Positions 9,132-45,848 of a DNA stretch of 64,000 nucleotides are shown here, in pieces; within the stretch, counting starts at the first letter, position 1, and every line of letters starts with the position of its first letter. Source of the stretch: a virus (Duplodnaviria > Caudoviricetes); the IMG/VR virus record IMGVR_UViG_3300031555_004297, one strand, 5' to 3'. The position numbers and the translations under genes were made by a program. The notes under the pieces were generated by a model. That model searched no databases, was not told the origin of the DNA, and saw nothing but the letters and a program-made list of their open reading frames with translations.

Positions 9132-9182
9132 TCTGTATCATTTTTAAAGGAGATATAAAAAATGACTACTTACAAAATCAGA

Positions 9183-9752
9183 TTACGCTCTAACGAGGTT
9201 AACCTTGTTCTTGAGCTGATCAACAGCCTTCTTGGTCTTCTTAAGCTTCTTTGCATTCTTACCATCCTTCTTGCCGCACTTAGCCTCAAGAAGAGTATTC
9301 TCAACAAGCAACTTAACAGACTCAGCAGTGATAACAACAGCAACCTGCTCAGGCTCTACACCATTCTTAGCAGCGATGTCCTCAACGACATTTGTTGCAT
9401 CGGGCTCACACTCTTCTGCAGTAGCAGGAGCAGCACCCTCTTCAGCATTTGCATTCTGCTCAGCAGCTGCCATCTCGCCCTCAGTTTCCTGAATAGCGAT
9501 AACAGTCTCGAGCGAAACAAAGTACTTAGCAGTACCAACGGGAGCCTGAGCTGCATAAAGATTAACAGCCTCAGATACAACCGGAACACCACCATTAGTG
9601 GTCTTATCTTTCTCATCAACTTCTTCAACGTTATTAGTCAGATCTTCTTCGAGTTCCTCAATAACGTCCTTTACCTCTTCACTAACCTCGGGGTTAAGAA
9701 GATCAGCAGAAGCAGCTTCTACAAGCAACTTACGCGGATTGTTAAACAACAT
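9183..9752 (-). CDS. Acidic late protein, probable prohead/internal head protein
   Basis: E/A-rich with LVEA, VSEA and LLEA sites, basic C-terminus; late promoter AACA-TATAAA-TA; strong codon bias. Confidence 0.6.
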   Translation of the reverse strand: MLFNNPRKLLVEAASADLLNPEVSEEVKDVIEELEEDLTNNVEEVDEKDKTTNGGVPVVSEAVNLYAAQAPVGTAKYFVSLETVIAIQETEGEMAAAEQNANAEEGAAPATAEECEPDATNVVEDIAAKNGVEPEQVAVVITAESVKLLVENTLLEAKCGKKDGKNAKKLKKTKKAVDQLKNKVNLVRA

Positions 9753-9909
9753 TTTGGAGTTCCTCCTTGATAAAATATTTTTTAGAATTGATCAATTCCA
9801 CGTCATTCGGAATTTATTTATATGTTGTAGAGTTAAAATAATTAAAACGCCCATAATTGAAGGCATTTATAGCGTTTTAACCCATTTTTTCCAGTATCAT
9901 AGCGAAAAA

Positions 9910-10644
9910 TCACTTATTTTCACCATCTACAAGCTCTCTAATACGACCCTTTACAAGATCTACAATATCCTCCATCTTGGGAAGATTGTAGGCTCCAGAT
10001 GGATCTACATAGATAAAGTGTTTAGCAAGAATGGTTTGAGCATCATCGCCATTATAAGTTTTAGTAGCTTCCTCAATATGCTCAAGAGTTTCTAACTGCT
10101 CTGGAAGCATATAAGGTTTGTAATGATTTACAAACTCTCTGTATTTTCCATATACAGCAGAAGTGGGGACAAATAAATAAGAGGCATGTACAAGCTGATG
10201 TACAGTCTCGGCCAAAGGAATAAGACCGACCATTAAATTATAATGCAGATACATTACTTCTTTAGCAACAAACTCTTCATCAAGAGGCTCATTATACGAT
10301 ATTCTTTTATTATAGACAATAAGCGCTATATCATACAAACTAAGCGGCTCATGATGAATTTCAATATGAATCTTCGTAGAATCGGCATTACTAAGATTTT
10401 TATAGAAAGCGCATCTATCCATATCGACATACTCTCTAAGATATTTAATCATAGCTTTGTATTCAAATGAAGTTCTAACACACATTTCAACAGCTTTTAT
10501 ATATTTCTGGAATGATTTATCATCATTCAGATCATAATCATAAAGGTTATACTCAGGAACCTCATGCATCTGTATGACTACAGGCGGATCTTCCATTTCA
10601 TATACCTTATTTCCAACAACATTCGGATCTCTCAAATAACTCAC
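9910..10644 (-). CDS. His-Me finger (HNH-like) protein, paralog of 1927..2604
   Basis: MDRC...IEIHHEPLSLYDI...LHY...LAETVHQLVH. Confidence 0.55.
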   Translation of the reverse strand: MSYLRDPNVVGNKVYEMEDPPVVIQMHEVPEYNLYDYDLNDDKSFQKYIKAVEMCVRTSFEYKAMIKYLREYVDMDRCAFYKNLSNADSTKIHIEIHHEPLSLYDIALIVYNKRISYNEPLDEEFVAKEVMYLHYNLMVGLIPLAETVHQLVHASYLFVPTSAVYGKYREFVNHYKPYMLPEQLETLEHIEEATKTYNGDDAQTILAKHFIYVDPSGAYNLPKMEDIVDLVKGRIRELVDGENK

Positions 10645-10717
10645 CTACTTTCTATCATTATAGAAATGTTAAAAGAAGCAGATAGGAGTCAAAAGACTCC
10701 TATCTGAATGTTTATAA

Positions 10718-12115
10718 TTATACTTCGTTATCCTTATTAGGAACGACTCTTTCAAAATCTTCCTCTTCGGTACCATCGGGAGCAATACCAGCAGCCTGCT
10801 CATATTCTTCATCAGTTACTTCAAAGGTCTCATCTACAATACCAAGATCTTCGTCCATAAAATTGAACGGATCTTCGATAAGAAGACGAGGATTCGTATA
10901 AAGATCGCAAAGTTCTTTTGTATTAAATCTAGAAATAGATCTAAACCAATCACCTACTGCTTGTGCATACATGCGGATTTCTGCCTGAGCATGCTTATCT
11001 TCTCTAAGATGCAAGAACATCAGGAAACTCTTTACCGTAAATGTCATATAGATCTTTCTGCACTGAACATTTCCTGGGAGGAATGCTCTAGCATCTTCTT
11101 TCAGAAGATGGTGTTCCTGACCAGCAACAACAGGATTCTGAAGCTGCTCATAAATCTTACATATTGCATCTCCAATTTCATCGAGAGTGAGATGCATGGG
11201 GCTAGATGCTCCAAATCTGATATTGTACTTATGAGTTGCATCATACTTATCAGGCTTAAACAATGCAGGTGAGCTAAAGCATCCCTTGCTATAGTCTACA
11301 TATCTCTGAGACTCCTGAGTAATGCCATTTCTATGTCTTACAAGCTGATGAGTGCAAGTACGGCTCATATTCTTAAAAAGAATAGTAATAGATGCAAACT
11401 TAATCAGATCGAATGTTGTAATCTTTTCGGCGATCTCGGGTTCAATACTATAGAGATTCGTATACAGCTTCTTGATACTATCCATACCAATTACTTCAAA
11501 AAGTTCTGTATTTGCAGACTCGGGAAGAGATGCACTAAGCAGTTTGAAGTTTTCATCGGGCTCGAGATTCTGGAACAAATCTTTATCAAGAAGCTCGTAT
11601 GCACAGATATCTTCAAATGCGGCAGAGTTTCCATACTGGTAAAGAAGTGCTGTAATTGCCTGAAGAACAGGATTATTTAGATCTTCAGCTTCTTTATAGA
11701 GATCTGTAAAGCCTCTATAAGATCCACCGATAATAAAATGCCAGTATGTACCGTCATTAGACATTACACTAAAAGTATTAAGATACTTTACAGTAGTAAG
11801 AAAATCTACAAATTCAGGTGCAAACTTTACAGCAACTTTAAGATATGCAACAAAGTTACTGTGCTCAAGAATAGACGTATGGCCAGTCTTAGATCTACGT
11901 CCTACATAATCTGCAATTCCTTGATAATCTTCAGGAATTGGCTTATCCCAACAGCATGCTGATGCGGTTGCACAGATTGGAATTGCGTTATTCATACCTA
12001 CCAGGTATGCTTTGACTGCTCCAAATCCGATGGATTCTTCAGTCACTTTCTTCTTTCCGCCAACTTTAGTTCTGATTTTGGACATGGCGGTTTCTTTGGT
12101 AAACGGGTTGTTCAT
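10718..12115 (-). CDS. thyX: Flavin-dependent thymidylate synthase (extended)
   Basis: GHTSILEH, SRTCTHQLVRHRNGITQESQRYV, EDARAFLP, LR..KHAQAEIR. Confidence 0.92.
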   Translation of the reverse strand: MNNPFTKETAMSKIRTKVGGKKKVTEESIGFGAVKAYLVGMNNAIPICATASACCWDKPIPEDYQGIADYVGRRSKTGHTSILEHSNFVAYLKVAVKFAPEFVDFLTTVKYLNTFSVMSNDGTYWHFIIGGSYRGFTDLYKEAEDLNNPVLQAITALLYQYGNSAAFEDICAYELLDKDLFQNLEPDENFKLLSASLPESANTELFEVIGMDSIKKLYTNLYSIEPEIAEKITTFDLIKFASITILFKNMSRTCTHQLVRHRNGITQESQRYVDYSKGCFSSPALFKPDKYDATHKYNIRFGASSPMHLTLDEIGDAICKIYEQLQNPVVAGQEHHLLKEDARAFLPGNVQCRKIYMTFTVKSFLMFLHLREDKHAQAEIRMYAQAVGDWFRSISRFNTKELCDLYTNPRLLIEDPFNFMDEDLGIVDETFEVTDEEYEQAAGIAPDGTEEEDFERVVPNKDNEV

Positions 12116-44550: not shown

Positions 44551-44551
44551 A

Positions 44552-45193
44552 TTAATCGTCCTCCTTAAGGTTAATAATGATAATAATCGCATTTCTACCT
44601 TCTGGATGAGCTTTCTCATCCAATGTAAAGATAGTAATACTGCGATCAAAATTTTCATATTCGAATACGGACTCTACCGTCTCGGTATCATAGCCTAATT
44701 GCATAATTGAAGTATCACTTCTGAGATACAAACGATTATGCTCTGAATAATCTATTATACCAGCATCTGAATTGATAATAAAGGCATTATGATGCTGCGC
44801 TAAGAAACTAGTTCTATGTGCAATATCAATAACCATTGCGAAGAATGCCCGTTTAAAATCCCCATCAGATGGATTATTCATATCCTGAATATTTGCCATT
44901 ATCTCTTTAATTAGCATCTCCATTGCTACCATCTTAAATGGAGCTCTAGGCAGATTAAGAATCTCCATGTCTGGATTCAAGGACATGGAGGATAAAGCTG
45001 TAGTTGTTTCTTCATCGTACATTCTCGTTAATACCGTACAATATTGATTTGGTTTGTACTTTTTAGAAAAATCATCATTTAATGCCATATATGGATTTCC
45101 TTTATACCATATAGCATTTAAACGATTAGGAGTTTTTGCTGTCTCCGATATTTTGTGTGCTTGATATTCAGTGTTCATAAACCACACCTCCAT
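44552..45193 (-). CDS. Hypothetical protein
   Basis: ORF; AACA-GTAATA-TA promoter; true start may be MNTE after GGAGG. Confidence 0.7.
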   Translation of the reverse strand: MEVWFMNTEYQAHKISETAKTPNRLNAIWYKGNPYMALNDDFSKKYKPNQYCTVLTRMYDEETTTALSSMSLNPDMEILNLPRAPFKMVAMEMLIKEIMANIQDMNNPSDGDFKRAFFAMVIDIAHRTSFLAQHHNAFIINSDAGIIDYSEHNRLYLRSDTSIMQLGYDTETVESVFEYENFDRSITIFTLDEKAHPEGRNAIIIIINLKEDD

Positions 45194-45299
45194 TTATATT
45201 ACTGTTTTCAAGCCGATCAAAGTTCATATTATGATCATATTTATATTATCTAACCGAGCAACATTTATGTAATCTAAATTTTTAAGGAGGCTGTTACAA

Positions 45300-45731
45300 A
45301 TGTTTTATGGCAATGTTTCCAGCGGCGTATTTGGTGGGGCAGATGTTAAGCTCGAGAGTGTGCTCAAGAACCCCAACCAATTCCGTGAAGCTGTAATTTG
45401 TGAAACCATTAGATCCCTTCCCTCTGAGAAGATCAAAGAGTTCTGCACTTCTGAAGAGGCAAAGGCAATGATTAATGAAGGATATATTACTCAGGATACT
45501 ATCGAAAGACTTGCTGATAGCTGCGATACAAGCATCTTCAAGACTACTGTTTGTCACATGGCAAAAGAGGCAGATGATCCCGACTGGGATGCATTCGTAA
45601 TGCATCAGATTGAGTCTCGTAGACTTATGAATGATATGATTGCGAAGTATGGCGATAAGGCTAAAGATATCGCCGATAATGCTCAGACCGACTTTGTTGA
45701 GCATTGTGTTCCCGAATACTTCCGCAAGTAA
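45300..45731 (+). CDS. Small late protein, probably head-associated
   Basis: Late promoter AACA-TTTATG-TA; KLES, ICET and INEG sites. Confidence 0.6.
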   Translation: MFYGNVSSGVFGGADVKLESVLKNPNQFREAVICETIRSLPSEKIKEFCTSEEAKAMINEGYITQDTIERLADSCDTSIFKTTVCHMAKEADDPDWDAFVMHQIESRRLMNDMIAKYGDKAKDIADNAQTDFVEHCVPEYFRK

Positions 45732-45750
45732 TATTAACTAACTATATTGT

Positions 45751-45848
45751 AATCGGTGAATGGGTCGTGCAAGATTCTTTTCATGGATATTCCTTTCTTA
45801 AAAATATAGCAAGAGGGCAATAGTCCTCTTGCTCTATTTTTTATTTTA
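45751..45848 (+). ncRNA. Candidate ~95-nt late sRNA with anti-SD/anti-AUG module
   Basis: AACT-ATATTG-TA at 45740-45751; UUCUUUUUCAUGGAUAUUCCUUUC; terminator at 45807-45833 plus T-run. Confidence 0.5.

Follow-up and report, generated by a model that had tools for sequence, protein, structure and literature searches.

Why would a phage carry sites that look like translation starts on the strand opposite to the one predicted to be transcribed? The question is raised by a virus record from IMG/VR (IMGVR_UViG_3300031555_004297; Duplodnaviria; Caudoviricetes), in which several intergenic spots hold a well-spaced Shine-Dalgarno (SD) sequence and ATG in this orientation. The window analysed here is a stretch of 64,000 nucleotides (nt), positions 96001-160000 of a 185-kb phage contig, which is incomplete. 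The original prediction held that RNAs read through these spots carry the reverse complement of a translation-initiation region (an anti-SD, in most cases with an anti-AUG) and form a dispersed set of late antisense small RNAs (sRNAs) that shut off early phage or host mRNAs. Our comparisons point to a real, clade-wide non-coding feature, and we assign a probability of roughly 0.6 to the reading that its members are late anti-start-site sRNAs aimed at host genes or variable phage genes.

Late units and 3′ tails in the window

All six motifs are present, each once and exactly where it had been placed. The sites in three units, U23, U30 and U45, lie as proposed between the unit's own late promoter (AACW-N6-TR) and a terminator hairpin 90-160 nt on, and no gene lies on the transcribed strand between the two signals. 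The two sites at 23344-23411 were both recovered, but they share one unit, U23, whose late promoter (23437..23448, minus strand) overlaps the stop codon of gene 23447-24616. The predicted RNA of ~158 nt (23280..23437, minus) begins with a hairpin, carries two anti-start-site seeds and ends in a terminator that also serves the convergent gene 22899-23279. Seed 1 (23394..23411, minus) places its anti-AUG within the 5′ hairpin, followed by the anti-SD; seed 2 (23344..23365, minus) has an anti-AUG, a U/G-rich linker and an anti-SD 25 nt before the terminator. U30 would yield an RNA of ~108 nt (30749..30856, minus) that runs from a promoter identified by motif match (30856..30867, minus) to a terminator, adjoined by a seed with anti-SD and anti-AUG (30785-30800, minus); a second anti-SD (30825-30830, minus), absent from the original list, is lost in the relative L108. 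The U45 promoter (45740..45751, plus) comes directly after the stop of gene 45300-45731, and the predicted RNA of ~92 nt (45751..45842, plus) extends to a terminator and has a seed (45782-45797, plus) whose anti-AUG lies in the 5′ stem and whose anti-SD is unpaired before the terminator.

The sites at 9147 and 24748 likewise lie where they were expected, between the stop codon and the terminator of genes with late promoters (9815-9826 and 26622-26633, respectively). U9 (9100..9182, minus) is the 3′ untranslated region (3′UTR) of late gene 9183-9752, with an anti-start site at 9146-9164, its anti-SD in a loop, and then the terminator. U24 (24688..24760, minus) is the 3′UTR of the major capsid gene 24761-26548; it has an anti-SD at about 24746-24755 without an anti-AUG, and is the weakest member of the set.

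We speak of "late" units and of "RNAs" on the strength of promoter motifs, which suggest both. Among the products of the window are the major head protein (24761-26548) and an RNA polymerase beta subunit encoded in split form (45959-48199). The closest cultured matches of the head protein are in Listeria phage LPJP1, Yersinia phage phiR1-37 and Bacillus phage AR9, and the source phage is an AR9-like jumbo phage of the gut. In AR9, the late promoter is AACA-(6N)-TA/G and the early promoter an AT-rich element (PMC5312081). The late-promoter consensus found here agrees with this mapped promoter: AACA/T-N6-TA/G is enriched before genes, and a multisubunit RNA polymerase is encoded, as in AR9-like late transcription. 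The A/T variant of the motif occurs upstream of 48/98 genes in the sense orientation, as compared with 2 in the antisense orientation and 11.8 in shuffled sequence, and similar enrichment holds in five relatives. SD usage and a LysM-domain protein would fit a Bacillota host; attempts to identify the host via the capsid protein and via the reverse transcriptase of a diversity-generating retroelement yielded none. Outside the window (genome C1:68823-72600) lies a diversity-generating-retroelement-like cassette, which comprises a target gene, a repeat and a reverse transcriptase-like open reading frame (ORF); a short leader ORF (~68690-68820) contains a tract of 10 C; similar repeats are seen beside the L005 capsid gene.

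Across unrelated unit sequences a common fold is predicted, in which a 5′ stem, often with the anti-AUG arm, is followed by a single-stranded anti-SD, whose median distance to the terminator stem is 10 nt. For the last anti-SD, the predicted probability of being unpaired is 0.78, versus 0.64 in motif-fixed shuffles (p=5e-5); for the anti-AUG the predicted value is 0.49. Around the ATG, the A+C fraction of the SD strand is 0.68, compared with 0.53 in real start regions (p=1e-4). This excess corresponds to a U+G-rich RNA, as G:U wobble pairing predicts, and is not what would be expected of working start sites. U-rich arms complementary to the second codon are also common, with AAA in 10/29 seeds versus 10% of phage genes. 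An excess of AAAGGAA-type seeds (8/40, versus 24/885 phage starts) was considered as a host-like trait and dropped, as the frequency in a Clostridia sample is only 4%; U:G wobble explains the excess.

Units of the same design occur elsewhere on the contig, at genome positions 25367-25535 (two seeds), 67508-67615, 67645-67743 and 165027-165122, along with a further 3′UTR site at 183718-183824. Promoters are ambiguous for a three-seed cluster near 73300 and a single seed at 166890. The cluster (C1:73280-73420, plus) consists of three tandem anti-start-site seeds behind an early-like promoter, in a tract that also holds a perfect DnaA-box 9-mer. At the contig end (C1:185090-185246) is a tandem array of 15-17-nt repeats, also seen in the close relative L104 (8200-8330), possibly an origin or packaging-related repeat. 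Within the window, a rod not in the original list (40810..40895, minus; SD+ATG at 40848-40860, plus) stands behind an early-like AT-rich promoter (40904-40912). We include it in the set with low confidence; relative L093 has a rod at the same place with a weak seed only.

Several other structured elements lie nearby. Directly upstream of U30, ~300 nt of strongly folded, ORF-less sequence (30880-31200, minus) comes with a late promoter (31169-31180) and a terminator separate from those of U30; in L050, L108, L113, L114 and L115 the 3′ hairpin and the place of the terminator are retained while the body diverges, and the sequence has no Rfam match. This is probably a separate non-coding RNA. A multi-hairpin leader (40690-40830, minus) precedes small gene 40418-40636. 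Its layout recurs with changed stems in two relatives, L093 and L097, where it precedes the small gene ahead of 6001. It has no match in Rfam either, and may be a riboswitch-like or stand-alone RNA. Conserved segments resembling group I introns flank intron ORFs at 42484-42794 and 43596-43807, and others are found at genome 1.1-5.2 kb, 19.6-20.6 kb, 86.5-87.3 kb and 162-163 kb; none is detected by Rfam at the gathering score.

Enrichment and conservation in relatives

The original prediction named enrichment over shuffled intergenic sequence as a check, and such enrichment is found in relatives that had not been seen when it was made. From de-duplicated loci of relatives we collected all segments from stop codon to terminator, plus all gene-free segments from late promoter to terminator, and used dinucleotide shuffles for comparison. 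In an automatic screen, 6/50 stop-to-terminator segments contain a full anti-start site, where 0.64 are expected; the sense strand of the same segments serves as a control and gives 1 versus 0.66. Of the late-promoter units, 14/19 have an anti-SD (3.8 expected) and 7/19 a full anti-start site (0.65 expected). In stop-to-terminator segments, late promoter and anti-SD also tend to be found together (Fisher p=3e-4). SDs on the sense strand show a mild rise as well (7 versus 3.3), which probably reflects small genes missed by the gene caller. For the phage's own genome, 5/8 late units have a full anti-start site (0.23 expected), a count that includes the sites from which the prediction was made. 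Without these, the genome's own 3′UTRs give 1/6, which is not significant (p=0.12), and the statistical case therefore rests on relatives.

A hand-collected set of orthologous units gives the same picture. A strict anti-SD is present in 27/30 units versus 4.5 in shuffles, and CAU lies 3-17 nt upstream, at start-codon spacing, in 24/34 seeds versus 7.4 expected; p-values from this 30-unit set overstate certainty because the set and the motif list were chosen after the data had been seen and because the lineages compared are related and hence not independent. A scan of viral sequences with the U30 promoter pattern matched 24 contigs.

Promoter, seed and terminator keep the same loci in relatives (L and G handles below) while the body of the unit diverges. 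The U23 slot, in which the promoter lies at the same stop codon or immediately beyond it and an anti-SD and terminator are present, is occupied in L108, L111, L001/G001, L002/G004 (where the promoter spacer is one base longer) and L112-L116; the promoter is found at the same place in L108, L111, L001, L112, L114 and L116. In the four copies that can be aligned (window, L108, L001 and L111), promoter and anti-SD core are invariant and the linker has indels. Seed 2 retains its CAU in all four at variable spacing, and seed 1 is retained in L108 with a spacer indel. The U30 slot is occupied in L108, G001, G003, G004 and L112-L116, and its promoter is found in these and in L109. U45 occurs in four other lineages (L248, L249, L250 and G001) and is absent as a block from L251, G003, G004, G005 and G007; its promoter is found in L248, L249, L250 and L039. 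The unit at 25.4 kb of the genome is also present in G001, G003 and G004.

In the 3′UTR that corresponds to U9, the anti-start site of G004 differs from that of the window, G003 has a late unit that stands alone, the site of G001 is weak and G005 lacks one. The anti-SD of U24 is retained in L108, and L023 and L115 have a full anti-start site there, but the feature is sporadic, being absent from L001, L002, L111-L114 and L116. Similar units are found at other places in L015, L023 and L028.

Relatives also carry other elements outside these slots. L115 has an extra late-promoter unit of ~330 nt between the capsid gene and the next gene (9560-9960), with an anti-start site close to its 5′ end and a purine-rich body. 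In the more distant L009 (about 1990-2150, minus) and at the equivalent place in L011, a conserved late unit has its anti-SD inside a hairpin, unlike the exposed seeds described above. A gene of the Sequestin family (PF21825), an anti-defence family, follows a DHH-family gene in L112 (14667-14930) and L116 (14747-15022); the window has none at that position.

Proposed mechanism, targets and alternatives

How might such RNAs act? We propose that the non-virion RNA polymerase transcribes dispersed non-coding RNAs of 70-180 nt late in infection, partly as stand-alone units and partly as 3′ tails of late mRNAs. Each would display an unpaired pyrimidine seed (CCUCC, CUCCUUU or UUCCUUUC) just upstream of its terminator. 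The seed would nucleate on the SD of a target mRNA, and pairing would then spread via the U/G-rich linker as far as the anti-AUG arm, so that the 5′ stem of the RNA itself opens. With the start codon covered, the 30S subunit could not load.

The targets are less clear. It is conceivable, if rather unlikely, that the same RNAs act by this mechanism mainly on the phage's own mRNAs, early or fast-evolving, and so provide a translational switch from early to late expression. Seeds of the CUCCUUU/UUCCUUU type can wobble-pair with the AAGGAGA-type SD of 10/17 early-class genes, the seed at genome 67645-67743 has a 12-nt exact stretch in the start region of gene 22899-23279, and the contig at hand is incomplete. 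Yet searches by duplex energy, rank among six genomes and cross-genome co-variation gave no signal for own-phage targets. Own start regions have a mean rank of 3.76 among six genomes (3.5 expected), a test in which one strong "foreign" match is an orthologous unit mis-called as an ORF, biasing one row against "own". Only 3/19 seeds beat all foreign start sets, which is about chance level, and most seeds pair no better with early-class than with late-class genes. Across 116 gene families, in a comparison that included the near-complete genomes G001 and G003, matched seed-genome pairs are no better than swapped pairs in five of six unit families; U23 is marginally better (0.0023, versus 0.0032 and 0.0074). 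The predicted repertoire of sRNAs against translation-initiation regions is supported by comparison as to its units, which are ORF-less, enriched, conserved in position and predicted to expose an anti-SD, and not as to early phage mRNAs as their targets.

Host targets, the other half of the prediction, fared no better in direct searches, as scans of bacterial start regions returned no specific match. Exact and wobble seed patterns run against GTDB genomes gave either nothing or four generic lipoprotein-like starts in unrelated Clostridia, and a class-wide scan with the conserved g25 seed gave no matches. For U23 seed 1 the class-wide scan returned seven unrelated genes, one of them HU-like; HU was considered as a target and dropped. 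Nor do the seeds bind more broadly than would the exact antisense of a start region taken at random, so a design for general shut-off is without support; the notion of unusually broad-binding seeds was abandoned for the same reason, ordinary antisense start regions binding as broadly. Because the seeds turn over fast and do not track conserved phage genes, we consider host mRNAs or variable phage genes the most likely targets, by elimination.

Other explanations dispense with pairing to mRNA or with function altogether. The sites could be pyrimidine words that arose by chance, or remnants of genes since deleted, in the AT-rich spacers that adjoin terminators, and any RNA made would be functionless or serve only to stabilise 3′ ends. 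The promoter motif is indeed short (0.13 per 100 nt in shuffled spacers), single sites such as 24748 are sporadic in relatives, and seeds change fast. Against this, the enrichment in relatives is strand-specific, promoter, seed and terminator recur at the same loci with different sequences, and units come or go as whole blocks; we regard this explanation as already disfavoured, with perhaps one chance in ten left to it. Somewhat less probable still is that the RNAs imitate the 3′ tail of 16S rRNA and so titrate a protein, which might be ribosomal or a factor of initiation or defence. Among the elements of the units the anti-SD varies least, some of them lack an anti-AUG (24748, the L249 copy and an RNA of AR9 discussed below), and the seeds resemble the Bacillota 16S tail. 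However, CAU at start-codon spacing and U-rich anti-codon-2 arms are foreign to that tail, and the seeds vary among units beyond what would be expected for a protein ligand. Least probable of all is that the SD+ATG strand is the functional one and holds true starts of small or overlapping antisense ORFs, a contrary possibility that the original prediction itself had raised. In SD strength and spacing the sites do resemble true starts, and from two of them long frames of 202 and 191 codons run antisense to real genes. But neither promoters nor conservation support translation of this strand. No late or early promoter faces it within 160 nt of any site, the sites lie beyond terminators or head-on into genes, and it is the other strand whose promoter and U-tract terminator are conserved. 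Small proteins are further disfavoured because the frames range from 8 to 202 codons, the peptides are unconserved, indels alter the reading frame, some orthologues have lost the ATG, and the composition departs from that of real start regions in the wobble direction.

Several observations weigh against late anti-start-site sRNAs as well. Besides the post hoc choice and shared ancestry of the orthologous set, the failure of target searches in both phage and GTDB genomes, and the ordinary binding breadth of the seeds, unit bodies are on average no more stably folded than shuffles (mean z -0.23), and the U/G skew could partly be ordinary structured-RNA composition. The anti-AUG is missing in some orthologues (L249, and U30 of G001). 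U23 is missing from more distant relatives, at a capsid identity of about 60% or less, and the unit finder detected no anti-SD unit in G007. In the single RNA run that matched, a metatranscriptome (8% of words), contigs lie over coding regions only, at a depth of about 2-7; no unit is covered, but the run is too shallow to count for or against the units.

A bolder version of the anti-start-site reading, which we put forward as tentative, is that in a lytic jumbo-phage clade each genome has some ten antisense RNAs in fixed slots, whose seeds are exchanged and rapidly redirected and whose targets are the start regions of host genes, such as those for defence or the envelope. If true, this would be an RNA-only layer of host take-over or counter-defence, invisible to protein-centred screens, and the seeds would indicate which host genes these phages need silenced.

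Relation to known systems

The closest bacterial parallels are sRNAs of the RsaE/RoxS type in Bacillota. In RsaE, an unpaired C-rich seed blocks initiation (PMC2790875). The units described here share with these sRNAs an unpaired C-rich motif, complementary to the SD in 27/30 units and predicted to pair with it and block initiation, a length of 70-180 nt and an intrinsic terminator. As in other sRNAs that act on ribosome-binding sites, U23, U30 and U45 have their own promoter and terminator and no ORF; U9 and U24 are 3′UTR tails. The units differ from RsaE/RoxS in being encoded by a phage and, by prediction, read by a phage polymerase. Their seeds span the start codon and differ between close relatives, unlike RsaE with its conserved UCCC (PMC2790875). 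The window has no Rfam match at the gathering score, and U30 has none at E up to 1, so covariance models do not place the units with RsaE/RoxS, RNAIII or any other Rfam sRNA family. Neither are they cis-encoded antisense RNAs, as the SD strand has no gene, promoter or conserved ORF.

Among phages, c4 of P1 and P7 is a trans-acting antisense RNA; it blocks translation by pairing in the region of ribosome-binding sites (PMC12197685). It is likewise phage-encoded and works in the mode proposed here. However, c4 is a single conserved RNA, found in temperate phages and directed at a known phage target, ant, whereas the AR9-like jumbo phage described here has some ten unrelated units; Rfam gave no C4 match, and the searches for a cognate target in the phage found none.

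Regulatory RNAs of lytic phages are barely characterised, as far as the portions of the literature covered here indicate. In these sources, ORF-less start-to-terminator "sRNAs" are reported for 201phi2-1 and phiKZ (PMC11512511) and misc_4 for phiR1-37 (PMC12197685), which are also short non-coding units in giant phages with their own RNA polymerases. For those units transcripts were seen, and neither an anti-start-site design nor a tested function is noted in the parts consulted; those described here share such a design and are known from sequence alone. The same sources present giant-phage sRNAs without an assigned mechanism (PMC11512511, PMC8244752), and describe no anti-start-site repertoire.

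The most direct analogue may lie in AR9 itself. A late start site at 75478 (minus) has the second-highest step height in the late-promoter table of that phage (3757), and its transcript is listed as antisense to g090 (PMC5312081, Table S3). We predict that this RNA has an unpaired CCUCC followed by a long hairpin. It resembles our units in promoter type, phage group, strong late signal and this arrangement. It differs in that its seed is at the extreme 5′ end, without an anti-AUG, and we treat it as an analogue only, not as a positional or sequence homologue; other long-leader or antisense late transcripts of AR9 that we checked mostly lack an anti-SD. The repeated design, an exposed anti-SD with a stem-held anti-AUG arm at several loci per genome, suggests a testable mechanism of translation control for AR9-like phages, for which cultured AR9 and its analogous RNA provide a starting point.

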